From Promethearchaeota archaeon (GTDB lineage: Archaea > Asgardarchaeota > Lokiarchaeia > Sigyniarchaeales > SOKP01): a stretch of DNA of 64,000 nt. Shown here one piece after another: positions 47,034-64,000 of this stretch; position 1 is the stretch's first letter, and each line of letters begins with the position of its first letter. Made by a program: the position numbers and the translations under genes. The stretch spans positions 224,001 through 288,000 of the forward strand of contig JAEOUA010000011.1 in assembly GCA_016839555.1 (NCBI GenBank), given 5' to 3'. The notes below the pieces were generated by a model. It had not been told where the DNA came from. It saw only the letters and a program-made list of their open reading frames with translations, and made no database searches.

Positions 47034-47262
47034 ATACTCTCTTGCTAAATAGATTTTAATTATAAAATAATGTATATGATTTAAAAATTTTGAAACTAAG
47101 AAGAGAATGAGAATTTTTATTTTGATTGAAAAAATTCATTAATCATACCAATTAAAATAAAATATGAAATAGAATAGATTTAAGATTTAGATAAATAATA
47201 TATGCTCTTAAAGGATTTTATTAGAACTAATAAAAAAGACTCGTGGGAGGAAAAAATTGCAA

Positions 47263-47889: not shown

Positions 47890-48149
47890 CTTCTATTTCT
47901 CCATTCTCCTTATTATTATTAATATATTTAAGAAAAAAATATCATTCTTCTATATAATAAAAAAAAATTAATTATATAAACTTAATTTAAAGTTAGTGAA
48001 CTCTACTATTTAAAATTATATTATCTTAATTTAAAAAACTACTTTAGTCCATTTTTTTAGTCCAGTATTTTTATATTTAAAATAAATTTAATTAAAATAA
48101 TTTCTATTCTAATAGTAATAAAAAGAATAAAACGAATCATTTAGTAATC

Positions 48150-49349
48150 ATGTCCAGTTTTGATTCAAAATTATATCAGTTCGCGGTGAAAGAAGCAAAC
48201 GAAGCCGTTGCATATGATGGAAAAGGGCAATATCGGCAAGCCATAAACAAATATCAAAGAGCTGCTGAAAGTTTAATCCAATTTATTAAATATAATAACA
48301 ATCAAATTATGATTAAAAAATGTAAAAAACAAATAGAAGAATATCTCGACCGTGCAAAACTTTTAAAATCTCATCTCAATGGGGCAAGATCAATAAAATC
48401 AGCTACTGATAGAGATATCAAAGAAGCTGGTGGAGAAGGAGAAATATCCGACGAGGAACGAGAAATATTGGATATGATTAGTGGAACTATCATAACAGAA
48501 TCGCCCAACGTGAAATGGTCTGATATTGCGGGACTAAAAAGTAGTAAACAAGTTCTAAGGGAAGCCATCGTATTACCCATTATGAAACCCAAATTATTTA
48601 CAGGAGCACGAAAGCCTTGGTCGGGAGTTTTATTATTTGGACCACCGGGATGTGGAAAAACATTATTAGCTAAAGCAGCCGCCTCAGAATGTAAGGCGAC
48701 TTTCTTTAGTGCATCTTCTGCAGATTTATTAAGTAAATGGCTAGGAGAAAGTGAAAAATTAGTTAGCGCTTTATTTAAAATCGGTCGTTTAAGAGCTCCG
48801 AGTTTAATTTTTATTGATGAAATAGATTCTCTTGCCACAAAAAGAGGAGAAGGCTCGGAAAGTGGAGGTGAACGTAGAGTAAAAACCCAACTTCTTAGTG
48901 AAATTCAAGGAATGAAAACCACAGAGAATAAACCTATGTTAGTTTTGGGCGCTACAAATCGTCCATGGGACCTTGATAATGCGATGCTCAGCAGATTTCA
49001 GAAAAAAGTATATGTTCCTTTACCGGATCTTGAAGCAAGAGCGGAGATCTTTAAGATTCACACCAAGGGAGTAAACATGGCTTTAGATGATGAAGACTTT
49101 ATTGAATTAGGTGTTAGATCAGAGAGATATTCTGGGAGAGATATTTCCAATGTCTGTAGAGAGGTCATAATGATGCCCATTAGAGAATTAGATGCTTCAG
49201 GGATGTTAGAACATCCTGAGCAAGAGGTTAAGGTTAGAGATATTACACTTGATGATTTTAAAAAAACTCTAAAAAAAGTGAAACCTATGATGGACAACAA
49301 AGATTTGGCAAGATACGAAGATTGGGCACAAAAATACGGGGAATATTAA
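48150..49349 (+). CDS. vps4: Vps4 AAA+ ATPase (MIT + AAA)
   Basis: MIT domain (AV..D....AI..Y...EYLDRA), PNVKWSDIAGL, GPPGCGKT, SKWLGESEK, IDEID, GATNRPW. Confidence 0.93.
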   Translation: MSSFDSKLYQFAVKEANEAVAYDGKGQYRQAINKYQRAAESLIQFIKYNNNQIMIKKCKKQIEEYLDRAKLLKSHLNGARSIKSATDRDIKEAGGEGEISDEEREILDMISGTIITESPNVKWSDIAGLKSSKQVLREAIVLPIMKPKLFTGARKPWSGVLLFGPPGCGKTLLAKAAASECKATFFSASSADLLSKWLGESEKLVSALFKIGRLRAPSLIFIDEIDSLATKRGEGSESGGERRVKTQLLSEIQGMKTTENKPMLVLGATNRPWDLDNAMLSRFQKKVYVPLPDLEARAEIFKIHTKGVNMALDDEDFIELGVRSERYSGRDISNVCREVIMMPIRELDASGMLEHPEQEVKVRDITLDDFKKTLKKVKPMMDNKDLARYEDWAQKYGEY

Positions 49350-49375
49350 TATAAACAAAATGACGAGGATTAAAG

Positions 49376-50296
49376 ATGGAAAAACAAAGAGATGAAGTAA
49401 AAGAAATTTCAAAAGAGCTTAAAGAAAAAGCTGATAAAGAATTAGAAAGACTCAGAAGAGAGTTATATCGTTTAAGAAAACTAAAAGAGCAAAAAGAAAA
49501 AGAAAAAAAAAAAAAGAAAAAGAAAACCGCTACCGAAGAATTAACTAAAGAATCTGCTTCATCTGTTTCCGAAAAACCAAAGAATATTAGCGGAGTAAAA
49601 GAAATTGAAGAATCATTTGAAGAGATTGATTCTTTATTAAGTCAAGAATTAGAAAAAGAGAATCACAAAACTTATGAAAAAAATGCGAATTATATTGAAA
49701 CCCAATTACAAAAATTAGAACAAGAAATAATTGGAGAAACGGGTCTCATTGAAGAGGAACTTTCGCCTTATGAAAAATTATTAGATGAATATCCTTGGTT
49801 GGAACAACCTCGATATGAATATATGTTTCATATCCCGAATAAAACAAAAAATCCAAATGATTTCGAATCCTGGGTCAATGAATGGAGTAAAATTTTATTT
49901 GATTATGCCAAATATGCGATTTTACATATCCTTTATTTGAGGCAGTTATACACAGAAGCCCCATTTTCTAAATTTGAGAATCGAAAGCAAGCAATCAAGG
50001 AAATTAGTAATTGGTTGGTAAAGCAAGATTTAGCAAGGTGGCTTTCAAAGAAAAAGGAAAAATTAAGGGTGTATTGGAAAACTTTGGATTTAATGGCCGA
50101 AGAAATTTATGACTGGGCTTATGATAGCGGGAAATTAGAGCCAATACTTATTTATGAAATTAGGGAAGCCAAAAAGGAATTTAATGGTCTTCCAAAAGAC
50201 GAATTTGAAAAAATATTTGAAAAACTTTCAGAACAAAATAGAGCAGAAATAATAAAAATAAAAGATCGGATTGCTTTAAAGATCCTTCTCGAATAA
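49376..50296 (+). CDS. vps25: ESCRT-II Vps25 with long N-terminal coiled-coil/Lys-rich extension
   Basis: W..EWSKILFDY, ARW....RVYWK...IYDWA..G....IYEI match Vps25 winged helices; downstream of vps4. Confidence 0.8.
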   Translation: MEKQRDEVKEISKELKEKADKELERLRRELYRLRKLKEQKEKEKKKKKKKTATEELTKESASSVSEKPKNISGVKEIEESFEEIDSLLSQELEKENHKTYEKNANYIETQLQKLEQEIIGETGLIEEELSPYEKLLDEYPWLEQPRYEYMFHIPNKTKNPNDFESWVNEWSKILFDYAKYAILHILYLRQLYTEAPFSKFENRKQAIKEISNWLVKQDLARWLSKKKEKLRVYWKTLDLMAEEIYDWAYDSGKLEPILIYEIREAKKEFNGLPKDEFEKIFEKLSEQNRAEIIKIKDRIALKILLE

Positions 50297-50617
50297 TGGA
50301 AATTTCTTTTCCATAAACTTAAGAATTTTTTCCCTTTTATAATGATTACAGAATGCTGAATTACAATCAAAGGGGTGATGACATTCGTTAATATGCCCGA
50401 ATTCGCAGAACATACACGAAAATATTTCATCGTCAAATAATTCTCTTTCATCTCTGGGACAAAAGGCGTGACCATATTGAAGGGTGATCATCCTTCTGAG
50501 ATTTCTGAGTTTTATTTTATCGTAAGCGGATTTCTCTTTCTTCTCTTCTAAGCGTTTGACTGCTTTAATGATGGTTATAATTGCTTCTGCGTGGTGATTG
50601 CTTATTTTTTGAGCCAT
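50276..50617 (-). CDS. Cys/His-rich hypothetical protein overlapping the left att site
   Basis: CPRD..CMFC..GH..ECH....C....CNH. Confidence 0.7.
   Translation of the reverse strand: MAQKISNHHAEAIITIIKAVKRLEEKKEKSAYDKIKLRNLRRMITLQYGHAFCPRDERELFDDEIFSCMFCEFGHINECHHPFDCNSAFCNHYKREKILKFMEKKFPLFEKDL
50277..50296 (+). repeat. Left attachment-site-like repeat (current 3' end of vps25)
   Basis: taaagatccttctcgaataa = K-I-L-L-E-stop. Confidence 0.8.
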
Positions 50618-50620
50618 TGT

Positions 50621-50815
50621 TTAGATCAGTCCCCGTTCTTTGAGTGGATTTTTACGGTGGCATTCATAACATTCGTCATAATCGGGTTCAATATCTCCGT
50701 AGCCACAATAAGGGCAGTGCAACACTCCATCCATTACTGCGGTTTTCAACATATCGAGGAGTCCTTTTTGCGTTATTTCTCTTTTTACAAAATTTTTATT
50801 CATTTTTGGTTTCAT
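50621..50815 (-). CDS. Small double-CxxC zinc-ribbon protein
   Basis: CPYC...EPD...CYEC...NPL. Confidence 0.72.
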   Translation of the reverse strand: MKPKMNKNFVKREITQKGLLDMLKTAVMDGVLHCPYCGYGDIEPDYDECYECHRKNPLKERGLI

Positions 50816-50867
50816 CTCTTTTTTGATTTTTAAGGTTTTTTATTGGTTTATTTGGTGTTTGAAAAAA

Positions 50868-51149
50868 TTAGAATTTGCCCCATAAATGCCGATATTTATC
50901 GTTTTCGTCTTTACTGCGGGGGGCGTATTTTTCGGCGTGTTTCTGGGCGATGTAAAATATTGAGTTTCTGGTGTGTCGTGCCTTAAAAAAGCATTCTCTA
51001 TCGCAAAACGTGAAACCAAAGGGATCGATGAAAAAAGATTTCTCTATCTGGATCTGCTTTGAACAATAACAGCAATAATAAGTTTTTGTTGTGTGTTTGT
51101 TTCGGGGTAAGTAAAATAAGTTAATCTTTTCTAACTTTTCGTCAAACAT
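50868..51149 (-). CDS. TRASH/FCS-type zinc-finger small protein
   Basis: CCYC...FCDREC. Confidence 0.68.
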   Translation of the reverse strand: MFDEKLEKINLFYLPRNKHTTKTYYCCYCSKQIQIEKSFFIDPFGFTFCDRECFFKARHTRNSIFYIAQKHAEKYAPRSKDENDKYRHLWGKF

Positions 51150-51171
51150 TATTACATAAATGAGGCAATCC

Positions 51172-51201
51172 TTTTTAAATCATAATAGGGTAATGATTTA
51201 G
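51172..51201 (-). promoter_or_regulatory. Shared promoter motif copy A
   Basis: Coding strand ctaaatc-attacc-CTATT-atg-ATTTAAAAAG; TATA ~22 nt before the ATG at 51149. Confidence 0.55.
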
Positions 51202-51221
51202 AATAATTGAACTTAATCTCA

Positions 51222-51282
51222 TAATCTATGAGCATTTCAAATATTGTTTTATAATAAAATGGAGTTTTCTACTCATAGATTA
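51222..51282. repeat. 11-bp perfect inverted repeat, 39-nt spacer
   Basis: taatctatgag / ctcatagatta. Confidence 0.7.
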
Positions 51283-51643
51283 GAATAAAGAATATTTTGA
51301 ATAAAATCTCTCCTGCTATATACAATTTCTTAATCATTCTCATCAATAGAATTGGAGAAGATACAAAATAAATAAAAAACTAGTAGTTCTTTTTCAGGTA
51401 AAAGCTAAAAATTTCAATCTTCATCCGATCCTTACCAAAAAATATATTTAAATTTCTTTACCTGAGCAAAATAAAAATCTCTCGTTAATATCCCAAAAAA
51501 GAATTTTGGTGTTTTAATTCTGTGTGGTAAAATTCAATAATATCTTAACAATGTTAATATTGATCTTAACTTATAAAAAAAAAGTAAAAATAGGAAAAAA
51601 CAAAAAAATGTAAGTATAAATAGGAAATTTTTGGATCTTTAAC

Positions 51644-51868
51644 CTAATTTCCCAAAAAAATACGATTCAATTCCACCTCGAAATTAATACCATTTAATCT
51701 CTTAAGCATTGTTTTAAGTGTTTTAAATTTTTTAATTGCTTCTGCTGTTGTTTTACTGCTTGTGTCACATAAATGAAAAATAGTTTGGTCGTCATCTGGG
51801 TGTTCTATTAAATATTTCGTTAAGGTAAAAATTTTTTCTATTAGCGAATTTATTTGATCTTTATTCAT
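51644..51868 (-). CDS. Hypothetical protein
   Basis: 74-aa ORF with upstream promoter motif. Confidence 0.6.
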   Translation of the reverse strand: MNKDQINSLIEKIFTLTKYLIEHPDDDQTIFHLCDTSSKTTAEAIKKFKTLKTMLKRLNGINFEVELNRIFLGN

Positions 51869-51916
51869 TTTATTTGATTAGATTTTTGTTTATTATGTAT
51901 AAACATACAATATTCA

Positions 51917-51947
51917 TTTAAATAATGAAATAGCGTGGTGGATTATT
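51917..51947 (-). promoter_or_regulatory. Shared promoter motif copy C
   Basis: Coding strand aataatc-caccacg-CTATT-tcat-TATTTAAA. Confidence 0.55.
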
Positions 51948-52083
51948 ATAAATATATCCGATCTTTAACTTTATAGATATTTCAAATCGTCTTGTGAGGG
52001 GAATAGAATCCATTTTTTAATAGTTTAGTAAAATAAAGAAAAAAAAAATAGAAAAAAAAAGAAAATATAAGAGTTTAAAATGG

Positions 52084-52428
52084 TTAGAATTTGCTATATA
52101 TCACCTTTCCCGTTAATCTGTCAAAAATCTTTCTGCATGTTGGACAAATAAGATATTCTCCGTTGTCAAATAACTTATTCTTGCATAAACAATCAAATTT
52201 GGTTTCCTTAAGGTTTGATAAATCCATCTTCATTTTCTTTTCTCCGATTATGGTATTTATAATCTCTTTAAACTTTGGAATCCATTTTAGCAATAAGATA
52301 TAGATGGATTCTTCTAAAGTTTGCTTTTCTAAGGGTTCTAAATTGTAGATAAAGGTATATCTCTCTTCTAAAAATTCTATTATTTCATCTGTCATAATGT
52401 CTAAGGTTTTATTAACCAGTGCGTTCAT
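52084..52428 (-). CDS. Hypothetical protein with C-terminal zinc ribbon
   Basis: CLC...CPTC; overlaps the upstream ORF. Confidence 0.6.
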   Translation of the reverse strand: MNALVNKTLDIMTDEIIEFLEERYTFIYNLEPLEKQTLEESIYILLLKWIPKFKEIINTIIGEKKMKMDLSNLKETKFDCLCKNKLFDNGEYLICPTCRKIFDRLTGKVIYSKF

Positions 52429-52735
52429 CTCCTTTTTGCTGTGAAATTTGGGGTTGATGAGAAAAGATATTCGGTTTATGGTTTTGGGCGATCCATTTTC
52501 CGATATCTTTAAAAAAATGGGTAATATCTCCGTTGTGAAAGTCGATTTTGACTAATTGCATTCTAATCTGCTGATGGATGGCGGGATCACAATGTTTAAT
52601 ATACTCAATGATGACCCCTAAAGGCATATAATGATATGTGTTATCATCGTCAATAAACTCGAAAGCAGTTGCTTCTGCGTCTATCTCCTTTTCTTCCAAT
52701 AGTCGTTCTAACCATTTGTTAAATTGAAGGCTCAT
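52412..52735 (-). CDS. Phage/plasmid-type hypothetical protein
   Basis: KWL...EEK.ID...LVKIDFHNGD..HFF pattern, recalled from mobile-element hypotheticals and not verified. Confidence 0.7.
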   Translation of the reverse strand: MSLQFNKWLERLLEEKEIDAEATAFEFIDDDNTYHYMPLGVIIEYIKHCDPAIHQQIRMQLVKIDFHNGDITHFFKDIGKWIAQNHKPNIFSHQPQISQQKGDERTG

Positions 52736-52756
52736 ATAATATAAATAGAGTTCTGG

Positions 52757-52786
52757 CTTATTAATGTGAATAGACTAATGATTTAG
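52757..52786 (-). promoter_or_regulatory. Shared promoter motif copy B
   Basis: Coding strand ctaaatc-attagt-CTATT-cac-ATTAATAAG; 16/18 identical to copy A; TATA ~21 nt before the ATG at 52735. Confidence 0.55.
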
Positions 52787-52995
52787 TTATTTTCATCTGG
52801 ATTTTTCTATTTTTGGAATAATTCGATTATAAGATATACATTGAAAGAAAAAAAATGAAAAAATTTTGAAATTCAATATTCTGTAATAGAAAATTTCACA
52901 TTAAAGGAATTATCTTTATAATAATTGAGGAGAATTGAGAATTTTTATTCTCATTTATTCTCATATTTTCAGCAAAAAGGAAAAAAAAGAGTGAA

Positions 52996-53220
52996 TTAAA
53001 ATATAGGTATTTTAGATTTAGGAAATTTTATAGAAGGGTTATCCATTCTGAAAGTTATATAATCATCTGGGTTACGAGTCAATGCGTTCTCAAAATCATA
53101 ATTCTTGATATTCTCGATCAGTTCTTTTGTTAAGAGTTCTTTGAGTTGTTCATTAGAATACTGAGAAGTGTTAATACCTAAATCTTGAGTGCTTAGTTTA
53201 ACTTTAAAGATTGCTTCCAT
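52996..53220 (-). CDS. Hypothetical protein
   Basis: 74-aa ORF with upstream promoter motif. Confidence 0.6.
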   Translation of the reverse strand: MEAIFKVKLSTQDLGINTSQYSNEQLKELLTKELIENIKNYDFENALTRNPDDYITFRMDNPSIKFPKSKIPIF

Positions 53221-53290
53221 TTTGGCTTCCTTTTATTTTTATATGAGGTATTAATAATAGTTTTTATTGAATTTATTTAAACAAAAATCC

Positions 53291-53321
53291 TTTAAATACT
53301 AAAATAGAGCATTAGATTATT
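53291..53321 (-). promoter_or_regulatory. Shared promoter motif copy D
   Basis: Coding strand aataatc-taatgct-CTATT-ttag-TATTTAAA; 24/31 identical to copy C. Confidence 0.55.
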
Positions 53322-53585
53322 GTAAAAATTAAAAAAAGAATTAAGTAAAAAAAGAAAAGAAAATTTCTGTTTCTAATATATATTTGGTCTCCCATCTTGC
53401 CATAGTCTTATAGTAAGAATAGGAATGATATATATCTTGTTTCTGGATCTCATAAACAGAATCGCTTAAAATAATTCTTATACCTTTATTCACCATTAAG
53501 AATTGAATTTTTTTTATTCTATTGCTGAGATTTTATATTCCTTATTTTAAAGAAAGTTTCATAAAACAGAGCAAAATCTTTTTTC

Positions 53586-53975
53586 TTATTGACTGATATA
53601 GTTTTGTAGGTTATAACTCTTCATAGCTCTCTTGATAGTTTGTATCAATGATTTGATTGTAAATGGTTTCTCTAAAAAAGAAAAAGCTCCGCAGGCGAAA
53701 GCCTCTCTCTTTATTCTTTTATCTCCTGTAATAAAAATAATTTTTATATTAGGATCTATTTGTAAAATTTCTTTTGAAGCTTCTATGCCGTTCTTTTTCG
53801 GTAAATGATGATCCATCAAAATCACTTGAGGTTTACTTTTGAATGCCTTAAACATTGAAATTGCTTCTTCTCCATCCTCTGCTATCCTTACTACTTCAAA
53901 ACCGTTTAATCTTAAAACTTTTTTATAAAAGGAATTTAAAGATTTGTCATCTTCGACAATAAATATTTTATCCAA
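53586..53975 (-). CDS. Stand-alone response regulator receiver (CheY-like)
   Basis: VEDD, ILMD phospho-Asp, ITG, EKPF. Confidence 0.92.
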   Translation of the reverse strand: MDKIFIVEDDKSLNSFYKKVLRLNGFEVVRIAEDGEEAISMFKAFKSKPQVILMDHHLPKKNGIEASKEILQIDPNIKIIFITGDKRIKREAFACGAFSFLEKPFTIKSLIQTIKRAMKSYNLQNYISQ

Positions 53976-54092
53976 TTTAATCCCTTAACCTAATTTTATA
54001 CCCAATAATTGTGTGAATTCTAATCAATCTCATATAAATTACAGATAGTTCGGTATTTAAATATTTCGATCCCATATAGAATGTAGATAAAA

Positions 54093-54305
54093 ATGAATGG
54101 GGAGATAGTTAAATATAGATTTTATAAGGATACATCACAAAGTCTTATTACAATTCCAAAAGCAATTGCTAGGTCATTAAATTGGAATGATAAAGATGAT
54201 ATTCATATGGTTATAACAACTATTGAAAATAAATTGGGTGTGTTTCTATTTAAAGACTCAGAGAAAAAGTCCGAGAAAAAGTACCTAAACCAAAAATTTC
54301 TCTAG
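54093..54305 (+). CDS. AbrB/MazE/SpoVT-like DNA-binding protein
   Basis: SLITIPKAIARSLNW..KD.I swapped-hairpin pattern. Confidence 0.75.
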   Translation: MNGEIVKYRFYKDTSQSLITIPKAIARSLNWNDKDDIHMVITTIENKLGVFLFKDSEKKSEKKYLNQKFL

Positions 54306-54703
54306 GAAAAATAAAGATAAAAAGAGAAAAAAAATAGATGTCCTCGCTTAATATCATAACTTATAAGAAAAGGTTAGAATAAGATCTACTCTATAGAGTT
54401 CTATAAAGTAATTCACTAAAAGACAAAAATCCAGGGATTTAAGCAAGGTTATCTATTTTTTTAACAAGACCTTACTTTTTTACTGATTCGTCGAATAATT
54501 ATAAATATGATTCCTATTTAAATTTAAGTATAAAAAAGCCATATATTCATAAAAATTAAGATTTCCTATAAGATAAATTATTTTAATGTAAATGTTTTCA
54601 AGAATCTCTGTGGAGTTGAAGCAGGAAAGAGATTGACACCATTATTTTAGATATATGAATCATTATATTAATTTCCATAAAATAGATGGGGTTATATGAA
54701 TCT

Positions 54704-54970
54704 TTATACTTTCCTAATGTCCACTTCAATGACATCTCCTGCGTTCAGATCTAATTTTTCAGCAACATAATATCGGATGGATACTCCTTTCGAACTCCCT
54801 ACCCAACGTACTTGGCGTGTCATAGTATGCGAGGGCTTATTTTCTACAGCCTTAAAGATTTCTATTTCTACGAGATCGCCGACATCGAGTTCTAATCCGT
54901 CAATAATATGTGATTGGATGATAAAACCCAATGTTCTGCCACTTTCAATAAGTAATACCGTATCTTTCAT
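54704..54970 (-). CDS. Tandem AbrB-like DNA-binding protein
   Basis: Internal duplication: GRTLGFII...LELDVGDLVEIEI / GSSKGVSI...LDLNAGDVIEVDI. Confidence 0.75.
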   Translation of the reverse strand: MKDTVLLIESGRTLGFIIQSHIIDGLELDVGDLVEIEIFKAVENKPSHTMTRQVRWVGSSKGVSIRYYVAEKLDLNAGDVIEVDIRKV

Positions 54971-55170
54971 GGGAATCTACATGTAAAAATTATTATTTTT
55001 TCAAAGTTCTACTTGTAATACTACCTAAAATCTCTACTATTATTTAAGATTTCACTTAATCATTTAATATTTTGATTAAATGTATTCAACTCCTTCCTTA
55101 GTTTCACTATAATAATCAGAGCTTTCATTATATCTTATTTATTTATCACAATTAATTCACCATATTAGAT

Positions 55171-55210
55171 TATGATATCATCATAAAGATTTAAATATGA
55201 TCTTATCATA
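55171..55210. promoter_or_regulatory. Two palindromic operator-like sites TATGAT-N3-ATCATA around a TATA box
   Basis: tatgat-atc-atcata (55171-55185) and tatgat-ctt-atcata (55196-55210), 25 bp apart, with tttaaata between them and overlapping the second. Confidence 0.7.
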
Positions 55211-55268
55211 ATATTATCTTGTATTATCTCCATAAAATATCAGGTAAATAAAAAATAAAAACATTAGA

Positions 55269-55622
55269 ATGAGTACTTCAGACCATCCATCAAAGCTAAC
55301 ACCTAAACCTAAGAAAATATCCTTAATTTATTCACAATTTATCGAAATTCTCAGTGAGAGCTTGGAAGATAATTTTGATGTGTGGTTTGTTTGGGTTACT
55401 AAACTCCTTATACAGCTTTTACACTCAGATACACTAAAAGGGGAGTATCTGACCAACTTTTTACGGATTTTTACTTCCTTAACACATAGGAAAAAATTGA
55501 TTTCTCCAATTCCAGAAGGGAAAGACATTCACACATTATCAGCTCAAAAAAAAGCTCACATAAAAGAAATTCTTGAGGATTTAATATTTTTATCTGAATA
55601 TAAAGACAAAGAAGAGGTATAA
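55269..55622 (+). CDS. Hypothetical protein, first gene of putative tfb operon
   Basis: 117-aa ORF. Confidence 0.6.
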   Translation: MSTSDHPSKLTPKPKKISLIYSQFIEILSESLEDNFDVWFVWVTKLLIQLLHSDTLKGEYLTNFLRIFTSLTHRKKLISPIPEGKDIHTLSAQKKAHIKEILEDLIFLSEYKDKEEV

Positions 55623-55680
55623 TAATATTCAAGATCCTCACCATAAAGTTAGGCAGGAAATTAATAGGATACGAAAGAGA

Positions 55681-56214
55681 TTGGATTTACCTCTCTCGAT
55701 TAACGAGCAGATCTATATTATATTTCAGGAAATCGAGAAATGTGCTATTCAGACAGATCCTCTGAAACTCATACCGCTCTTATTCCTTCTCTATTTAAAC
55801 ACAAATAATTACTTTCTAAGCTTGGATAAAATTGCCAAAATATCCTATATTTCCGTAAATGAGTGCTTATCCTTTACTGAGGATCTCCGAAGGTTTGAAT
55901 TTGACGAAAAACGATGCACGTTTCAAAATATTAAAACATTTAACCTTACGTTTTCGAAATTCCGCAAAAAATATGGAGTTTGTCCCGTATGTAATACTAA
56001 ATTAGATGAGGAATATTTGAGGCTCTACTATTTTGATAGATTGTATGACCGTCAGAAACTTAAGGAAAATCTCAACAATAGGTTGAGCCGGGAAAAATCC
56101 TTTCGATATGTATATGAGAGACGGATCACCCTCAAAATTCCCTGTATTATCTGCTTTCTGGAGTTATTACAGCAATTAAATTATAAAAATGTACCCATTG
56201 GAGTAAATCAATAA
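55681..56214 (+). CDS. Hypothetical protein with split CxxC...CxxC Zn site
   Basis: CPVC and PCIIC. Confidence 0.6.
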   Translation: MDLPLSINEQIYIIFQEIEKCAIQTDPLKLIPLLFLLYLNTNNYFLSLDKIAKISYISVNECLSFTEDLRRFEFDEKRCTFQNIKTFNLTFSKFRKKYGVCPVCNTKLDEEYLRLYYFDRLYDRQKLKENLNNRLSREKSFRYVYERRITLKIPCIICFLELLQQLNYKNVPIGVNQ

Positions 56215-56240
56215 AATAATAAAATAGGAGTGTATATAAT

Positions 56241-57545
56241 ATGATTGTTCAAGATTGTTTGTATAATAATAATAGTAATAATTTAGATGTATGTGACCTT
56301 AGCTGTGAGTTATGTCATTCCTCTGAAATTAGAGAAACCCAACAAGGGTATGTGTGTGCCGAGTGCGGGTGCGTTTTAGATCTTCCCATTTTAAAATATC
56401 ACGTGCCCTATACCCAAAAAAAGATCCATTATGAAGTATCTGTGGGAAATACCTTTCTTGGATTACAAAAAGAACGAAGATCCAATCGACACTCTCCCAA
56501 ACTGAAGCGATTACACAAACTTCAGTGTTCCCAATCATATCAAGATATGGTATATCATGATACAGAGATCGAAATTTGCCGGATTCTGGCAGGATTAGAT
56601 CTCCCCCACACCTTTAAAGATCCTATCTTCAAAACCTTTAAAGAACTTTGGGGTAATTATTCACAGAGAAGTCGGTTTCAAAGTATTGAGAAATTAATAC
56701 CTGTTCTTATCTATTATTTCTGCAAAAAGCAATACATATCCATAAATGAACATGAACTATTGGAAATCGCTAAGGTGAATAGAAAACAATATATTTATTA
56801 TAAATTGAAATTTCTTGCCCCTCCCTCTGCATATAAGAATGCTAATCGAAAAAAGCTTATAAAATCAAAATTGTTTAGGCTGGCAGTTGAGTTAGGTTTG
56901 GGAATGGATTTCTACCACGATGCAGTAAAGTTGTTAAATAAACTATATAAAGAGATTTGTTGCACGAAAGAGAGTGTGATCGCGGGACTTATCTCATCGA
57001 TTGTAGTATTATGTCGTTATAGAGAGGAAATAACTGTCAATTCCATCTGTAATTACTTCAATATAGCAATGAGTACCATTCAATCGCGGGTTAAACGGCA
57101 TTTTATAGAAAAATTTAAGGTCGTCGGATTCGAAAGCCTGGTAAAATCGGCTCATATCATCAAAACGACTATTTATAAGTTAGGGATCTTCGAAGAACCG
57201 TCCGGAGAACAAATCAATGAGCCATTCAAAGAGCTTTATGTTACCATAGAAACGAATGCTACTGAAGAATCAGAAGAAGGAGACTTCTTTTCCGAAACTC
57301 TTGATACCCCTAAAATAATTCAAGTGAAAGCAATCTATAGAAACTTACGCAAGAGATTTCCCAGACTCCAGAGATCCTATAATTGCTTCCTCTTTATTCT
57401 TCAAAATCGATTTGATTTACACCCCATCTTCATCTCTCTATTATTGCCAACCAATTCGATTATGCATATTCTCAAGCAAAATGGAAATAAAGCCATACTG
57501 AAAAGAATGACCAAATATTTATACCCTTCAAAAGGACCTCCATAA
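56241..57545 (+). CDS. Divergent TFB/TFIIB paralog with C-terminal extension
   Basis: Zn ribbon CELC...GYVCAECGCVL; two cyclin-like repeats (EICRILAGLDLP..; ..L.L....Y..A..L..; HTH-like TVNSICNYFNIAMSTIQSRV); AGGAG upstream. Confidence 0.75.
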   Translation: MIVQDCLYNNNSNNLDVCDLSCELCHSSEIRETQQGYVCAECGCVLDLPILKYHVPYTQKKIHYEVSVGNTFLGLQKERRSNRHSPKLKRLHKLQCSQSYQDMVYHDTEIEICRILAGLDLPHTFKDPIFKTFKELWGNYSQRSRFQSIEKLIPVLIYYFCKKQYISINEHELLEIAKVNRKQYIYYKLKFLAPPSAYKNANRKKLIKSKLFRLAVELGLGMDFYHDAVKLLNKLYKEICCTKESVIAGLISSIVVLCRYREEITVNSICNYFNIAMSTIQSRVKRHFIEKFKVVGFESLVKSAHIIKTTIYKLGIFEEPSGEQINEPFKELYVTIETNATEESEEGDFFSETLDTPKIIQVKAIYRNLRKRFPRLQRSYNCFLFILQNRFDLHPIFISLLLPTNSIMHILKQNGNKAILKRMTKYLYPSKGPP

Positions 57546-57564
57546 TACACTCATTTATCACAGT

Positions 57565-57713
57565 AATATTCCTTCATTGAAGGAGTATTCATCAAGATAA
57601 GAATTTCACCGAGATTTCTGGATTTTTGTCTAATAATCTTTTGTTTGATTGACGCAAAGAAAAGATTCGCTCTCATTCCTTTTTTGATCATCTCGGATGA
57701 TCCTTCTTATCTT
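57565..57713. other. Multi-stem structured non-coding segment downstream of the tfb-like gene
   Basis: aatattccttca/tgaaggagtatt; aagataagaa/ttcttatctt; ccgagat/atctcgg; aatctttt/aaaagatt. Confidence 0.6.
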
Positions 57714-58074
57714 TATCTTTTTCTCTTTTTCTTTTAAAAAATGATTTTATGTATCACTTATTTCTCTAATATAAGTCATTAAAGTGAAAAATTTTCCTGT
57801 TGGATTAGGATTTCTACTTATATTGTATTTTATTTCTTTTATCAGTGGTACAAATTTAAGTCTATAATTGTCAAGGGTTGGATTAAATTTACATTTCTTG
57901 TATTAAAAATTAAATGTCTTTTAATAAAATCGGTATAAACATTTATAAGTCAATTTAATTATACTATTAATAATAGCAGTCGATTTATTTCTATTTATTT
58001 AAATTTTCTTAGAATTTGAGGGTTGAAAGATACATCGAAATGCAGGAGCTATACAAAGAAAATATAATTAAAAA

Positions 58075-58850
58075 ATGAAGATACCAAAACAGCTAAAAAA
58101 AAATAGAAATTTTAAATTTAACCAGAAAAATACTAAAACATATTTGAGATTGCTTAAAAGTGAGTTCAAAACTCATTTTAAAGAACTTATGGTTAGATTT
58201 AATGATAAAAGAAATATTAGGTTTATTTCGAAAAATGGCAAAAGTATTTTCCCATTTGATGAAAATCAAGCTTATAATGAGTATGATTTCAGAGTATTTT
58301 GGCATAAGAATCAGATTGAAATAGTATATAATGATGAAATAATCGAAAAAAATCTTCTTAGAAAGTATAAACTCACCTTTTTGAAAAATCTATTTAGTCA
58401 AATAGCACATCACGAATATGCTCATACAAGACAATTCGAATCAATGTTCTATAAATATTCTCAATCTATTTATAATGAGATTTTCAATAAAGATTTAGAG
58501 ATTATTTCATCTGATGATATAAAGAGATGTGATATAAAATATAGATCTATTACACAAAAAATACAAAAATCTCTTAAAAATATTCATATACTATATATTG
58601 ACCATACTTTTATTGAGTTTTGGGCGAATTCAATTATATATGATGAAATAGACTCTAATCGTCCCGCAGAAAGGCTGATAGAAAGAAGAGACTTAATGGT
58701 TGATAAAGAATGTTTATACCCTGATCATATTTTAAATCCTGAAATAAGATATGGAAAGAGAATTTTAGACCTTTTGGAATTATCCCAAGAACATTTTATC
58801 TTTAAAGACTGGGAACCATTAGAAAATCTTTTCAAAAGATTGAATCGATT
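58075..58850 (+). pseudogene. HEXXH metallopeptidase-like gene, 3'-truncated (the 58075-59106 ORF reads through into foreign sequence)
   Basis: IAHHEYAH plus downstream EFWAN; after ~58845 base composition changes and the translation becomes out-of-frame-like. Confidence 0.6.
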
Positions 58851-58916
58851 CGTACGTTTCAACTCATCCCCTCGGATGCGCCCCCTCTTAAGTCTAACAT
58901 TACTTCTATTACTATT

Positions 58917-61900
58917 ATGTCATTCCAATTATTCGGCGAGTTCTCTTTCGATTCTTCAATCACATTATATCCCAACGAGTTCACTTACGACTCTTCGACG
59001 GGGAAAGTATCCATCAAACCCGCTGCTTTCGAACAGATTAGGGCGAGAACCAGCAATATGGAGTGGTCGAGCAATTCTCACTCTGAAGCGAATCTTCTCT
59101 ATATAATATCCCTTGAATCCGTGCGCTCCATTTATAGTACCGAGGACGATCTCTCGTTGTCGCAGGCAAAGCAAATAATGCTCATGCAAGGCATTCAGAT
59201 GGGCATCGTCGATTATATGAACGAGTATGTCCAAGGATTTGCGAAGGCTCAGCTGGATTATCAGACCGGGTATAATTTAATCATAGCATCGGTTAAAATT
59301 GTGGCGACCATTATCGCGATAATTGCGACTAAAGGTGCCCTGGGCGGAATTGAAGCGCTTAAGCAAAGTTCAGCAGCTAGCGCTTCGGATGCGTCAGGAA
59401 GTGCTTCGGGTTCGGCTGCTGGTGGTTCGAGTTCGGCAGCTGCCGGCACAGGTGAAGCATATATTGGTCTTGATGGTATCCTCTATAATGAATTCGGGGT
59501 AGCTGTCGATGTTGCCGGCGGAATTGCCGTAGACTACGCTACCGAAACCGCCAAAGAAGTCATCAACACCTATTTGGAACAAAGCTTGGTGCAAATGTCA
59601 AATAGACTCGTACAATCCCTTTCTATTCAACAAATTTTGAAAATTGTGGTTCCATCTGTCGGTCAGTTGTCCGTTCAAGGGCTTTCAGAAGTTTCCCTTA
59701 CGCAAGTAATTACACAATCCATTGAGCTATCCATCGGACTCGACGGCAGCATCGTCGGACTCATCGGCGGCTATTTACTGACCGATATATTCGGCGAGAT
59801 AAGCAACCCGCAGCTCTATGTTCTCTCCCAGGAACTCGCCTCCATGCAAGAACAGCTCGCCTCTCCTACTAAATCGGCTCGGCTTACCCCGCAATTGGCA
59901 CAAGTCTTCTTTGAGCTTCGCCCCTATGGATTTGCGGGCGCCTCGGCACAAGAATTGCAGAAATTAACTCCAAGTGCGGTTGAAGTGGTTAATCAGGATG
60001 AAAAAGAGCGTCAGATGGCAGAAAATGCTCAAGACTATGCCGAGTTCATAGCGTGGTTGGAGATGGTGTTTGGCCTTATCAATATGACTATATGGGAATG
60101 GTATGAATTTTTAAATCGACCCTGGGATTATTCCATTTTCGATGAGATACGGGAGTTTAGACTGTGGGTAGAGGGGGGAATTTCCGATAATTATATTACG
60201 AACGAAGAGATTAAGAATAATCGCATTTATCAGAAATATCTGGAACTTTACCGTAGGAATAAGGAAGAATTTGCCCGAAGATTGGCTCGATACGATGAAT
60301 GGACAAAAGAGGCGGAAGTTTACTCCTTACGGAAGGCAATGAAAAATTATACAAAGCAAACCAGCAGATCCCCTTGTTTTCAATCAACAAATAAATTTAA
60401 AGGTAAATTTATTACATGGTTTCAAGAACATTATAACATACCATTCCCCCTTCACGATGAAGAGATACGGGAAAAGTTTTACAACATATATCCCGCCTTC
60501 ACTCGAATTCTTTTAGAGCATTTCGAAATCTATGACTCTTTTGAGAATGTTATGGACGACCCCCTTGATGTAGTGGAATGGGTAGAAAAATTAACGGGCA
60601 GGTTTAAGAAATACAACAATTCTGACTTAAAGCCCGCCCTATATAATGAACCTCGTGGTGGTCGTGATCTCTATAATATTGAAGGGGCGCCCTCTAGTAC
60701 ATCTTTTTATCCTTATGTTAAGATCTTCATTCGGGAAGCGTTCCGATTTGCGTATGAAAATGGAATGCGAAGGAGATTAACCCCACAAGAAGTGTCTCTT
60801 ATCCGTTCCTTGGCTCTGGATAAAACAATAACTACCTATCAAAAGATCGTCCGTGCCGTTCAAAAGGCCTCCAAGCCCGACGAGGGAAAGACCCTTGAAT
60901 TAGTCACAACACCCCGAGATTTCTTAAATTTCATGCTTCAAGCGGCAAATAATCCTGATTTACACCCTTCGCATGTTCGTGTGATAATTCGTTGGGTCGA
61001 GGGAGCGCAAGAGTATTCTCCACAAATTCGTAGAATTTATTTAAATCCTCACCGTAAATTGGACGGGTGGTATAAATCTACGGCTTTAACAGCAAAAAAT
61101 ATTAGAGAGATGGTAGAGCAATATGGATTTGAAATAGTATACATGACCGACGAGCAGATAAACAATGAGTTGAATAGAGTACGGAACGATCCGAAGAGGG
61201 GTGTTAATAACATTAGGTTAACCGTTCGATGTACAAGATGCCACACGGTTCAAACCAAATCGCTTTATAGTATACAGACATCTGCGCATTGTAGCTATTG
61301 TATGCCAAAGATTTATACCAATGAAGCGTATGCCCTCAAAGTATTAACCGAAATACTCTCGAAGCAGTCCAGCTCTTTCGACAGCTTTCTCAGGACCGAC
61401 CTTAAAGGAAACAAACTCCCCAAACTCCAAGCAACCCCTCTCTGGAGAAATCAGCATGTATATATCAAGGATCTGATCCACCCCCTTAAGAAAGGCGCGT
61501 GGATTCTCAATAAACATGGACAATGGGAATGGAATAAAAACTATTACCAATATGAAACGGATACGGATTACATAAAATTCTTCTGGAGCGTACATGTAGA
61601 TGGTGCAATATTTGTAAAGGTAAAACTAAAGAACTCCGACCAATTTGTCAAACAAGCAGACGGCACCGACATGGTATTCAAATTTCTATTAGAACGCCAG
61701 GGAGAGCAGCATCAAACCTCATGGAAGGGATTTATAGCGTGGCTCCGATTACATGGGGAAAACACCATCGCGGATATCGTAGAGCCCATTGGCAACATTG
61801 AAGATACACTTATCGTTCGGAGGTTAACACCTAAACAAAAGGACATACTTGATAAAGAGCATGAAAAATGGCTCAAGCAACTGCAACGAGATCGGGATAA

Positions 61901-62189
61901 AGTTAAGCTGTTTGAGTATCACCAGAAAGACGGGTTCTATCTGCTGGTGATGGACCATACCGTGAAGCCCGACCAAATGCTTCAGTTCCTCTGCGCTCAG
62001 ATTACCGAGATCGTTAATTTACATTTGATTGAGACCATAGAGAATATTCGGGGCGAAGATCTTGTATCTTTTGAGGAGATACGACAGATCCTAGAGGATA
62101 CCCTGATGCCTTACGGCAAATATATTCCTTGGTTAAAGCAGAGAAGAGTATGGGGAGATATAACGGATTATCTTAATAAAACGGGATAA
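58917..62189 (+). CDS. Probably 5'-truncated large membrane protein with C-terminal Zn ribbon and Vsr/DUF559-like endonuclease (polymorphic-toxin-like)
   Basis: Frame open back to 58806; TM plus Ala/Ser/Gly linker; CTRC...CSYC; NE..., VDG, ERQGEQH, QRDRDK motifs. Confidence 0.6.
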   Translation: MSFQLFGEFSFDSSITLYPNEFTYDSSTGKVSIKPAAFEQIRARTSNMEWSSNSHSEANLLYIISLESVRSIYSTEDDLSLSQAKQIMLMQGIQMGIVDYMNEYVQGFAKAQLDYQTGYNLIIASVKIVATIIAIIATKGALGGIEALKQSSAASASDASGSASGSAAGGSSSAAAGTGEAYIGLDGILYNEFGVAVDVAGGIAVDYATETAKEVINTYLEQSLVQMSNRLVQSLSIQQILKIVVPSVGQLSVQGLSEVSLTQVITQSIELSIGLDGSIVGLIGGYLLTDIFGEISNPQLYVLSQELASMQEQLASPTKSARLTPQLAQVFFELRPYGFAGASAQELQKLTPSAVEVVNQDEKERQMAENAQDYAEFIAWLEMVFGLINMTIWEWYEFLNRPWDYSIFDEIREFRLWVEGGISDNYITNEEIKNNRIYQKYLELYRRNKEEFARRLARYDEWTKEAEVYSLRKAMKNYTKQTSRSPCFQSTNKFKGKFITWFQEHYNIPFPLHDEEIREKFYNIYPAFTRILLEHFEIYDSFENVMDDPLDVVEWVEKLTGRFKKYNNSDLKPALYNEPRGGRDLYNIEGAPSSTSFYPYVKIFIREAFRFAYENGMRRRLTPQEVSLIRSLALDKTITTYQKIVRAVQKASKPDEGKTLELVTTPRDFLNFMLQAANNPDLHPSHVRVIIRWVEGAQEYSPQIRRIYLNPHRKLDGWYKSTALTAKNIREMVEQYGFEIVYMTDEQINNELNRVRNDPKRGVNNIRLTVRCTRCHTVQTKSLYSIQTSAHCSYCMPKIYTNEAYALKVLTEILSKQSSSFDSFLRTDLKGNKLPKLQATPLWRNQHVYIKDLIHPLKKGAWILNKHGQWEWNKNYYQYETDTDYIKFFWSVHVDGAIFVKVKLKNSDQFVKQADGTDMVFKFLLERQGEQHQTSWKGFIAWLRLHGENTIADIVEPIGNIEDTLIVRRLTPKQKDILDKEHEKWLKQLQRDRDKVKLFEYHQKDGFYLLVMDHTVKPDQMLQFLCAQITEIVNLHLIETIENIRGEDLVSFEEIRQILEDTLMPYGKYIPWLKQRRVWGDITDYLNKTG

Positions 62190-62378
62190 ACTCTGTGGAT
62201 TTTTTCTCGTTTACTTTTTATATTATTTTTGCAAAGAATATAATACGATCTAAAAGAACGAAATGATAATGAAAGATAAAAGAAAAAAATAAATATGAAG
62301 GTTGTTGTTATTTATATAATTACCAGCGCACCATTACAGTTTTATCAGTTTAAACCACTAAAAAAAGATTAATATAAA

Positions 62379-63371
62379 ATGGTTGTCGTATTTTATTGGG
62401 TTCAAAGCGAAGAAGAGCGGCTTGCCTTTTACGAATATTATTGGAACCCTCAAACGTATTTTTCTCATCATAATTCCATGATTTTGTTCGAACCCATTAC
62501 GCTAGATGATGGTAAGATTTTTGGGGAGAAAGACATACCCTCCGTGGTGCTGGAGTTTTCCGCGGGGTGGGATACAATTAAAGATATGATCAAAAAAAAC
62601 ATCGTGGTCGAAGAGCGTGTACTTTTATTCGATGACTTGAAGGATGAGGAGAGATATAATGAATTTATGATAAATTTAACGCAAAACCACAATGCATATA
62701 AAGGGTTTGATGCTGGTTCTTACGATATGATAAGATATCTCCATCGTCTTAACTATCGTTATATCGACGGCTCGATTCCTTCCCATGATTTAATAGAGTT
62801 GGAAAACTGGCTTATCTATTTACCCTCGAAGACGCTTCACGACGCAATCTTGGACGCCCTTTTTGAGGAGAACAAGCTTCAAAACTCATTTAGTTACCTA
62901 TTCATAAGGGATATATTGGAAACGAAAGATGGTTGCACTTTCGGTAAGGAAAACAAGCATACCTTGTTTATACACATCTTTTCCACCTTTCATAAGAACG
63001 CGGTTTACGAATTAATCGAAAAGGGCATCATAGAGAAACGACTGGCAATTCAACAGCGACACATCAAGGATTCTATGTTTCAAGATGCGCGAGATCGCGA
63101 TTTACGTAATATGACGCTTTTTTTGGTACTTCTAGACAAGGTAAGATTTAAGTATTATTTTTCCAAAAAACCTTATCGATTTGAAGACGGCTCCCGCCTA
63201 ACACTGGACAACTCCAACTTGTTTCAGAGAAAATTGGATTGGTGGGCGTCAAGGATGATAAAAGAAGAAGACTACTATTGTCCCGCGTGCAAGACAAAAG
63301 TTGAGCAGCGAACTATAAACTTTCGTGAGAAGGGGGAATTCTGTAATCTCTGTTGGGCTAAATTAACTTAA
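62379..63371 (+). CDS. Hypothetical protein with C-terminal zinc ribbon (candidate partner/immunity protein)
   Basis: CPAC...CNLC; same GC-richer composition as the upstream gene. Confidence 0.65.
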   Translation: MVVVFYWVQSEEERLAFYEYYWNPQTYFSHHNSMILFEPITLDDGKIFGEKDIPSVVLEFSAGWDTIKDMIKKNIVVEERVLLFDDLKDEERYNEFMINLTQNHNAYKGFDAGSYDMIRYLHRLNYRYIDGSIPSHDLIELENWLIYLPSKTLHDAILDALFEENKLQNSFSYLFIRDILETKDGCTFGKENKHTLFIHIFSTFHKNAVYELIEKGIIEKRLAIQQRHIKDSMFQDARDRDLRNMTLFLVLLDKVRFKYYFSKKPYRFEDGSRLTLDNSNLFQRKLDWWASRMIKEEDYYCPACKTKVEQRTINFREKGEFCNLCWAKLT

Positions 63372-63622
63372 AACTCATTTAAAAATGATTTTTTTTATTA
63401 CTCATACCTATTAGCTTGAAACTCTCAATTCTAAATTTTAATATTTTATCTTATATAAATTTACTTTCAGATCATCTAAATGATATTACTATTCTTTTTG
63501 ATCCCAAAGGTTAAAATTTCAAAAAATACCGAAGAAATATTTAACAAAGGAGACAGAATTAACTCCACAACAAATAAATGAAATAGCAATAGAATTGCTA
63601 CTGAAATGGGGAAAAAAAAAAA

Positions 63623-63642
63623 TAAAGATACTTCTTGAATAG
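63623..63642 (+). repeat. Right attachment-site-like repeat (displaced vps25 3' end)
   Basis: taaagatacttcttgaatag = K-I-L-L-E-stop; 17/20 identical to the left copy, mismatches at third codon positions. Confidence 0.8.
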
Positions 63643-63739
63643 ATATATCTTATTTTGTTTCCATTGTTTTTCTAGAATTTTTCTGAAAAACTAAATTTTT
63701 ATTGATATAAAATAAAGTGGGCTATGAAATACAATGGAA

Positions 63740-64000
63740 TTATATGCTTGGGAAAAACCATTGCTTCCCTTTTAGCATTGATTCTGTATATTTAGCTAGT
63801 CCGCTATCTTCCAAGGATTTTAATGATTTAAGCGCTCTACTCTGGGTCCATTGCAATTCATTAATAATATTTTCCAAGGAAATGACGCCCTCTCCTCTTT
63901 TTTTTACTAATTCAATAATTTTTTGTTCATCTTGAGTGTATTCAATAGGGAAAAACTGAACCATTACTGCCCCAGATTTTACTTCTTCCACATTTTCTAT
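63740..64000 (-). CDS. ESCRT-II Vps22/36 (EAP30) C-terminal winged helix (5' part outside window)
   Basis: VQFFPIEYTQDEQKIIEL...ELQWTQSRA...L...GLA....WFFPSI aligns by eye with the Vps22 C-terminus; frame open to window end. Confidence 0.8.
   Translation of the reverse strand: MENVEEVKSGAVMVQFFPIEYTQDEQKIIELVKKRGEGVISLENIINELQWTQSRALKSLKSLEDSGLAKYTESMLKGKQWFFPSI

Follow-up and report, generated by a model that had tools for sequence, protein, structure and literature searches.

A 13-kb island at the 3' end of vps25 in a Lokiarchaeon, with a probable substitute end for the gene it entered

Architecture of the vps25 locus

Here we describe an island that separates the ESCRT-II (endosomal sorting complex required for transport) gene vps25 from its usual neighbour vps22/36 in a metagenome-assembled draft genome of the Lokiarchaeia (G000; 12 contigs, 6.4% contamination). 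The whole stretch of DNA that was analysed, referred to as the window, is 64,000 nucleotides long (G000:C11:224001-288000). Towards its right-hand end it carries a Snf7-family ESCRT-III gene, vps4, an intact vps25 and, beyond the island, the 3' part of the convergent vps22/36 gene (Table 1), which in the genome runs past the window to about 64465 and has a full open reading frame (ORF) of 241 aa.

The Vps25 ORF closes with TAAAGATCCTTCTCGAATAA at 50277-50296, which comprises its last six codons and stop (ALKILLE*; ...GCT TTA AAG ATC CTT CTC GAA TAA). A near copy, TAAAGATACTTCTTGAATAG, lies at 63623-63642, 97 bp ahead of the stop codon of the EAP30/Vps22-36 gene at 63740. The two 20-mers are identical at 17 of 20 positions and have the same opening seven bases (TAAAGAT), and their three differences are all synonymous: ATC/ATA (Ile), CTC/CTT (Leu) and TAA/TAG (stop). 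When the window was searched for the 20-mer with up to three mismatches, these were the only two sites, with 0.04 expected by chance. An earlier reading made from the sequence alone (the sequence-only reading) had pointed out both 20-mers, their shared 7 bp and their three synonymous mismatches, all of which were confirmed, and had taken them as the borders of an integrative element that targets the 3' end of vps25.

Occupied and unoccupied spacers in relatives

The comparison with relatives started from 19 loci of the same genus and family and was extended across the class, to 161 genomes queried with the two proteins; gap counts rest on the approximately 125 class-level genomes that carry both genes on one contig. 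In the 19 genus and family loci, vps4-vps25 is followed directly by the convergent vps22/36, with stop-to-stop gaps that are mostly 1-61 bp (112 bp in one locus and about 620 bp in three). Across the approximately 125 Lokiarchaeia genomes, the gap is 1-121 bp except in G000 (13,443 bp) and six others: G005, G012, G022, G056 and G053 (625-1099 bp, from match ends) and G092 (1175 bp). G000 is the only genome with 13.4 kb between the two genes, and the concern raised alongside the sequence-only reading, that relatives might carry the same 13 kb, is answered by approximately 125 genomes without it.

The six other occupied spacers (loci L002, L008, L014, L053, L054 and L055) hold inserts of 0.6-1.2 kb that are related neither to each other nor to the G000 island. 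Among them are a flavodoxin-like gene common to G022 and G056, an ORF of 186 aa (G053) and one with a zinc ribbon (G012). No duplicated vps25 end was found in these six spacers (scores of 8-10, equal to the null), and they contain no repeats. In another member of the family, a fragment resembling vps25 (residues 95-165, interrupted by one in-frame TAA) was seen at G123:C14:35160-35372, approximately 900 bp beyond vps22/36.

An empty site in two independent contigs

Two contigs with an unoccupied site allowed the insertion to be read directly. L057 is a 7.2-kb contig of a close relative, found by a Vps25 scan of Joint Genome Institute (JGI) metagenome contigs, and is 85% identical in DNA to the window locus (proteins: Snf7 96%, Vps4 93%, Vps22/36 92% and Vps25 82%). 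L068, a 1.17-Mb contig from a different sample, provides a second, independent empty site. The vps25 end reads ...ATTGCGT TAAAAATACTTCTTGAATAG in L057, after which come a 101-bp spacer and the stop of vps22/36, and ...ATTGCTT TAAAAATACTTCTTGAGTAG in L068, followed by a 97-bp spacer. The consensus of both, ...ATTGC(G/T)T TAAAAATACTTCTTGA(A/G)TAG, a spacer of 97-101 bp and the vps22/36 stop, is near letter for letter the empty site that the sequence-only reading had predicted.

DNA homology between the window and its relatives ends at 50295-50298 and restarts at 63738-63740 (at 63623 for the closest relative), and no homologue of the island was found in the 19 related loci or in L057. Window positions 47050-50295 align to L057 640-3880 and positions 63623-64000 to L057 3862-4240; both flanks overlap on the same 19 nt of L057 (3862-3880), and 19-20 nt of the empty site are claimed twice. 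In L068, both window flanks likewise fall on one 20-mer. Because both flanks align onto a single 20-mer in the relatives, the 20-mer is duplicated in G000. One copy in the empty site and two around the insert is the signature expected of an attachment-site (att)-type or target duplication. We conclude from these alignments that the insertion is real and that the structural part of the sequence-only reading was correct.

Origin of the two vps25 ends and age of the insertion

The two empty sites also polarise the repeat. The orphan 20-mer beside vps22/36 matches the vps25 ends of the relatives at 19/20 (L057) and 18/20 (L068) positions and has the TAG stop in common with them; for the copy in use, the figures are 16/20 and 15/20. 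At 3/3 differing positions both outgroups side with the orphan, so the changes are derived ones that belong to the copy in use. A homologous spacer directly adjoins the orphan (local alignment score of 47 compared with approximately 18 for the null; 64-66% identity), and this contiguity, together with the outgroup match, identifies orphan and spacer as original chromosome. We conclude that the orphan is the native vps25 end and that the last 13 nt of the working gene came in with the insert. The vps25 ORF is complete and bears the three derived synonymous changes, as would be left by a substitute end carried on the element. That a replacement 3' end had kept Vps25 intact while the ESCRT locus was split was part of the sequence-only reading, and the two outgroups bear it out.

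A neutral 20-mer would keep 19/20 matches with a probability of 0.002-0.02, given that the adjoining spacer is approximately 35% diverged. The orphan is far better kept than this neutral spacer and was therefore constrained by coding until recently, and the insertion is young relative to the split from the L057 and L068 lineages. This recency, along with the location of the changes on the selected copy, argues against a target-site duplication with later drift.

To the left of the orphan (...GGGGAAAAAAAAAAA), the sequence has no homology to vps25, which places the crossover in or immediately before TAAAGAT. Longer versions of the repeat were sought and rejected. A hidden Markov model of the Vps25 C-terminus (19 relatives) gave no match to the 46-aa frame at 63502-63639 (E<=100; 94,105 genomic frames), leftward anchored extension from the 20-mer scored 0-2, and a continuation past the stop codon scored 18, equal to the null mean and not significant. 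Colinear local similarity upstream of the orphan gave p=0.03 against the vps25 of the window and p=0.17 against L057.

Just upstream of the orphan 20-mer, this side of the island retains an in-frame GGA-AAA (Gly-Lys). The GGx-AAA pattern, matched by eye, hints that the imported arm imitates about 33 nt. On the other side, the Vps25 of G000 (50245-50276) lacks one codon and the conserved Gly of the tail motif D-G-(K/Q)-I-A-(F/L)-K, reading KIKD-RIALK right before the repeat; this motif is kept in 21/21 relatives compared.

Junctions in the source assemblies

Both junctions were followed in Logan contigs from two runs of the source study, X1 and X2. The left junction is bridged by contigs of 5546 nt (X1) and 1968 nt (X2), and the right junction by a 3292-nt contig (X2) that spans 62486-64000, in each case with 0 differences; runs of two further studies also contain sequence-identical pieces of the island. 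A misassembly at one of the boundaries, which the sequence-only reading had named as a way in which it could fail, is thus countered by contigs from two runs.

The X1 Logan contigs break near 63430-63456, and a variant contig of higher depth is present in both X1 and X2 (14.6 and 16.4), in which 33 other letters stand in place of positions 63268-63685, a stretch that comprises the 330-aa gene's end as well as the right tail and the orphan end of vps25. Since this variant occurs in both source runs, the right border of the island is polymorphic in the population. No empty-site or circle (attB/attP) joint was listed among the contigs of four runs, in which contigs of approximately 5-12x depth drop rare variants; the joints that were listed all have sides of <=41 nt in A-rich repeats and count neither way.

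Repeat-flanked islets elsewhere in the genome

Comparison of the G000 genome with itself yielded several further islet candidates, two of which were checked. In the first, a single HEPN gene lies between two copies, 89% identical, of the final 272 bp of acdB (ATP-grasp_5) (C2:34217-34488 / 35683-35954; locus L059 1217-1488 / 2683-2954). G005, G001, G002 and G004 each have one copy of this gene end, and in G000 the downstream copy passes over into conserved flank. In the second, the last 298 bp (approximately 95 codons) of a gene for a flavin adenine dinucleotide (FAD)-dependent oxidoreductase are duplicated with 91% identity (C5:126872-127169 / 128640-128937; locus L058 1372-1669 / 3140-3437). 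This repeat encloses a PIN-domain gene and an 83-aa ORF, and the gene end is single-copy in G006. Neither cassette carries a recombinase, and in both cases the two copies are about equally far from relatives, which means that they cannot be polarised.

These islets resemble the vps25 island in having a cassette framed by an intact gene end on one side and its orphan copy on the other, an end that is single-copy in relatives, and no recombinase. They differ in their repeats of 272-298 bp at 89-91% identity and their cargo of one or two toxin- or defence-type genes, whereas the vps25 island has 20 nt and 13 kb. Judged by this shared layout, the vps25 island belongs to a recurring pattern in the G000 genome, with at least two other integrase-less cassettes that have a duplicated gene 3' end.

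More direct-repeat pairs were seen in the same comparison, 60-200 bp long, 80-97% identical and 1.3-10.5 kb apart (Table 1), one of which brackets a major facilitator superfamily (MFS) transporter gene. These are possible additional islets of the same type.

Proposed mechanism and alternative explanations

The mechanism that we consider probable, though well short of assured, is the entry of a circular foreign DNA through one reciprocal, conservative crossover made by a site-specific (tyrosine-type) recombinase that acted in trans or has since been lost. A single reciprocal exchange with a circle that bore a look-alike of the vps25 end is what the topology demands. A site-specific enzyme is favoured because the exchange was confined to no more than 7 identical bp between imperfect repeats, which matches the behaviour of tyrosine recombinases and is very short for homologous recombination, and its action in trans or later deletion is proposed because the present island is a mosaic without a mobility gene. 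The incoming circle would have borne a short stretch imitating the 3' end of vps25, at a minimum TAAAGAT-CCTTCTCGAATAA, and the crossover would have taken place in or just before the 7-bp block TAAAGAT, 20 nt ahead of the vps25 stop. As a result, vps25 now closes on 13 imported nucleotides that encode the same I-L-L-E-stop with three synonymous changes (imported-type end, as in the copy in use: ...ATCCTTCTCGAATAA), and the native 20-nt end with its 97-bp spacer is displaced 13.3 kb downstream, beside vps22/36. The predicted attB is ...GATTGCTT-TAAAGAT(A/C)CTTCT(T/C)GAATA(G/A)-ATATATCTTATT... and the predicted attP is ...GGGGAAAAAAAAAAA-TAAAGAT(A/C)CTTCT(T/C)GAATA(A/G)-TGGAAATTTCTT....

Several observations weigh against this proposal. 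The 20-mer repeat taken alone is only moderately unusual (p ~0.02), as the best ungapped junction-to-junction match was equalled by 1.7% (p=0.017) of random region pairs from the same genome; the insertion itself is firm because the comparative evidence is decisive, with a single 20-mer in two empty-site contigs and both window flanks aligned onto it. Among the island ORFs, no integrase, transposase, Cas1 or replication protein was found with Pfam, PHROGs, PADLOC and NCBIfam, and PF00589, PF16795 and PF00239 had no match in the island. When all six frames of the genome were searched with PF00589, one gene was returned, a XerA equivalog on C10 that adjoins orc1/cdc6 (242.6 bits, cutoff 220), and PF16795 and PF00239 had no match in the genome. 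Recurrent use of the vps25 target by related elements was not observed, and the G000 insertion is a single event. The contents of the island, including a TFB paralogue, a receiver, AbrB proteins and large orphan proteins, have the look of accessory DNA of the host rather than of a plasmid or virus. The 113-aa ORF at its left edge looks truncated at its 3' end: its homologue in G005 has 209 aa and the similarity ends near 50330. Counting for foreign DNA are a block with a G+C content (GC) of 0.41 and the presence of island components at other loci in G005. Two proposals of the sequence-only reading were thus upheld in part. Its mobile element is supported as far as the insertion, the duplication and the substitute end are concerned, but no tyrosine recombinase turned up in the island, and the genome has none besides XerA; and vps25 did receive one insertion at its end, but its use as an att target did not recur, the six other spacer inserts being unrelated.

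The main rival keeps the same Campbell-type topology and assigns the exchange to homologous or short-homology recombination by the host, without a dedicated integrase, as part of a general traffic in which cassettes travel with a 3'-end fragment of the neighbouring gene and re-insert at that gene. The lack of an integrase in the genome beyond XerA fits this explanation, as do the acdB-HEPN and FAD-oxidoreductase-PIN cassettes, which share the architecture but with much longer repeats, each of these repeats being single-copy in relatives. However, the homology available at vps25 is just 7 bp perfect and 17/20 overall, which is very short for RadA-type recombination, and the sequence to the left of the orphan does not resemble vps25, whereas 270-300 bp are available in the other islets; we therefore regard this explanation as a serious but rather doubtful alternative. 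A transposon-like insertion, in which a 20-bp target-site duplication produced identical copies that later diverged, would account for direct repeats exactly at the borders of the insert. It is quite improbable, since no terminal inverted repeats, transposase or Cas1 were found, all three differences fall in the copy under selection while the orphan, free of selection, has none, and the orphan is better kept than the neutral spacer, indicating a recent event, yet the copies differ at 3/20 positions.

Two further explanations would remove the need for any integration event. Ordinary accretion of genes in a permissive convergent spacer, with a chance likeness of the 20-mers, draws on the six genomes that have unrelated, repeat-free inserts of 0.6-1.2 kb in the vps25|vps22/36 spacer and on the p ~0.02 of the repeat alone. 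Against it, the orphan sits exactly at the native-end position relative to the homologous spacer and matches the ends of relatives at 19/20 and 18/20 positions, and a complete second end closes vps25 13.3 kb upstream; chance does not give both, and the two empty-site relatives refute this explanation for practical purposes, leaving it very improbable. Least credible of all is an assembly chimera at one boundary: the 12-contig metagenome draft with 6.4% contamination, the X1 breaks near 63430-63456 and the variant contig there could be cited for it, but both junctions are spanned with 0 differences and identical island pieces occur in the runs of two other studies.

A more speculative reading goes beyond these explanations. 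Although we hold it unlikely on present evidence, this Lokiarchaeon, and perhaps its relatives, might move cassettes of 1-13 kb without an element-encoded integrase, by means of gene 3'-end copies (20-300 nt) that are spliced in and leave the gene intact, driven by an unrecognised trans-acting recombinase or an unusually efficient short-homology recombination. If this were true, the vps25 island would be the largest and best-polarised of at least three such cassettes in one genome.

Relationship to known integrating elements

The closest analogue is the integration of e14 and phage 21 in icd of Escherichia coli. These elements integrate in the 3' part of the gene, supply a substitute end that is mostly synonymous and leave the native end orphaned at the far junction; they code for a tyrosine integrase of their own, and their substitute end measures about 165 bp. 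The vps25 island is alike in its substitute end, intact gene and orphaned native end, but it duplicates only 20 nt, has no integrase that could be found and resides in an Asgard archaeon.

Among Asgard archaea, integrated elements of Atabeyarchaeia carry tyrosine integrases, attach at an 11-bp motif and, in ten cases, exist alongside circular forms (PMC11529989). They share with the vps25 island an Asgard chromosome as host, a short repeated border motif and a cargo largely of unknown function (PMC11529989). In contrast to them, neither an integrase nor a circular form was found for the vps25 island, and in this Lokiarchaeon an ESCRT gene's coding end serves as the site. Archaeal elements of the SSV (Sulfolobus spindle-shaped virus) type, termed 'suicidal', are bounded by att repeats and carry attP inside the integrase gene, which is split on integration (PMC7253208). 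On that description the att repeats are alike, but the vps25 island was negative for a split gene and PF16795 had no match in the genome. Joining the two island ends added 8 codons to the left-edge ORF and did not recover the C-terminus of its 209-aa homologue.

No paper in the literature that was searched ties vps25 to a mobile element. An element that brings a substitute gene 3' end is known, and what is unusual here is an ESCRT-II gene as the target and the absence of an integrase. The locus offers a clean case of foreign DNA entry into an Asgard genome that was checked against empty sites, with exact junctions, native and imported ends and a recent date that can be read from the sequence. 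As the target is a eukaryote-signature ESCRT-II gene and a near-invariant vps25|vps22/36 pair has been split by 13 kb, it also forms a natural experiment on whether it matters that the ESCRT-II genes are tightly linked. The missing integrase and the same pattern at other genes raise the question of which enzyme inserts such islands, and the predicted attB and attP make this question testable.

Contents of the island

The features of the locus are listed in Table 1.

Table 1. Features of the vps25 locus, the inserted island and further repeat pairs (window positions, or contig of G000 where named)
Feature	Position	Strand	Remarks
Snf7-family ESCRT-III gene	47263..47889	-	Pfam PF03357 E=1.6e-16; protein 96% identical to L057
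vps4 (MIT + AAA + Vps4_C)	48150..49349	+	Pfam PF04212, PF00004, PF09336
vps25 (ESCRT-II), intact 306-aa ORF	49376..50296	+	Pfam PF05871 E=3.8e-11; homology to relatives until 50295-50298; last 13-20 nt judged to be of imported type
Left repeat copy (attL-like), vps25 end in use, TAAAGATCCTTCTCGAATAA	50277..50296	+	16/20 and 15/20 to empty-site relatives; bears all three derived differences
Inserted island, 13,326 bp	50297..63622		Absent from every relative examined
Cys/His-rich 113-aa ORF, left edge	50276..50617	-	Overlaps the repeat, on the opposite strand, with its last 7 codons
Five small ORFs of 74-114 aa; CxxC pairs in several	50868..53220	-	Arranged as an array
Receiver-domain gene 53586-53975 (-) and AbrB/SpoVT-like gene 54093-54305 (+)	53531..54462		PF00072 E=1.5e-23; PF04014 weak
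Three-gene unit (117 aa, 177 aa, 434-aa TFB/TFIIB-like paralogue)	55269..57545	+	Weak TFIIB zinc ribbon and NF001658 matches
ORF with HExxH motif (HEYAH in translation)	58075..58845	+	No family match
1090-aa ORF	58917..62189	+	N-terminal domain common to giant Lokiarchaeal proteins
330-aa partner gene of the 1090-aa ORF	62379..63371	+	Pair recurs in G005, 31-32% identical
Non-coding right tail, ends in A11 run	63372..63622		Not homologous to relatives
Right repeat copy (attR-like), stranded native vps25 end, TAAAGATACTTCTTGAATAG	63623..63642	+	19/20 L057, 18/20 L068, same TAG stop
Native vps25-vps22/36 spacer, 97 bp	63643..63739		Aligns with 101-bp (L057) and 97-bp (L068) spacers, 64-66% identity
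vps22/36 (EAP30), 3' part	63740..64000	-	PF04157 weak on fragment; 92% protein identity to L057
Repeat pairs	C3:51572-51767/53514-53713; C10:315907-316033/317657-317785; C1:121975-122140/123760-123930		
Repeat pairs	C5:23548-23607/24895-24953; C4:300325-300385/305557-305617; C5:191386-191459/202001-202073		

The island is mosaic in make-up, and blocks paralogous to parts of it lie on C1, C4 and C11; in G005, the closest genome, its components lie at separate loci beside leucine-rich repeat (LRR) proteins and large orphan proteins, with no integrase nearby. GC is 0.29 in 50297-58844 and 0.41 in 58845-63371, compared with 0.296 for the genome. No tRNA or Rfam RNA was found within the island, and an end-to-end inverted alignment revealed no terminal inverted repeats (score of 18, null 17). 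No virus hallmarks (capsid, packaging or replication) were detected; the PHROGs matches were one family of unknown function and one weak match, and PADLOC returned receiver-domain noise only. Searches of IMG/VR and the GTDB genomes with the 330-aa protein, the TFB-like protein or the imported-arm pattern found no relatives, and the imported arm itself was not found in genome_contigs or IMG/VR.

Of the small ORFs in the left part, the one at 52412-52735 matches phrog_6004 (function unknown; E=3.5e-15) and the one at 52996-53220 has paralogues on C1 and C11 (78-83%). The segment with the receiver-domain and AbrB-like genes is 92% identical in DNA to C4:211201-212136, which points clearly to a recent intragenomic duplicate, and is followed by a second AbrB-like gene. 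A repeat of approximately 150 bp at 54314-54472, with 24-nt inverted ends (54328-54351 / 54439-54462) and copies on C3, C4, C6, C7 and C11, looks like a miniature transposable element inside the island. The three-gene unit is 77% identical in DNA to C1:138600-141079. It forms part of a second, partial copy of the island at C1:138600-142783 (L021 10600-14783), where the small ORF, 117-aa, 177-aa and TFB-like genes (77-86% DNA identity) sit between a gene for a 1346-aa protein kinase and an Spt5-NGN-like gene.

A sharp step in GC near 58.9 kb, from approximately 0.25 to 0.48 (58845-58917), coincides with the end of the HExxH ORF, which in a different reading frame overlaps the 1090-aa ORF at its start. 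The HExxH ORF looks as if it were cut off at this composition break, and 58845-58917 looks like a junction of two blocks of different origin. The 1090-aa ORF had no Pfam, PHROG, PADLOC or NCBIfam match, and the ESM Atlas gave no usable match for its 330-aa partner. The C-terminal domain of the 1090-aa protein has D...E-x-QG-x-QH...RD-x-x-K motifs that are conserved across homologues, and these motifs, the sole basis for the assignment, suggest a nuclease with a restriction-endonuclease-like fold. A remnant of the pair occurs in other Lokiarchaeal contigs (L038 4608-6040; also L037 and L039), where no more than the last 89 codons of the 1090-aa gene and an intact 330-aa partner (79% DNA identity) lie among metabolic genes, between oxidoreductase and thiamine pyrophosphate (TPP)-enzyme genes. 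This layout resembles orphan toxin-tip and partner cassettes. In the right tail, a 40-nt AT-rich element at 63420-63459 matches C5:450791-450830 at 39/40 positions and is there located just upstream of a 461-aa ORF; in the island it may be a promoter that faces the orphan vps25 end and the 3' end of vps22/36.

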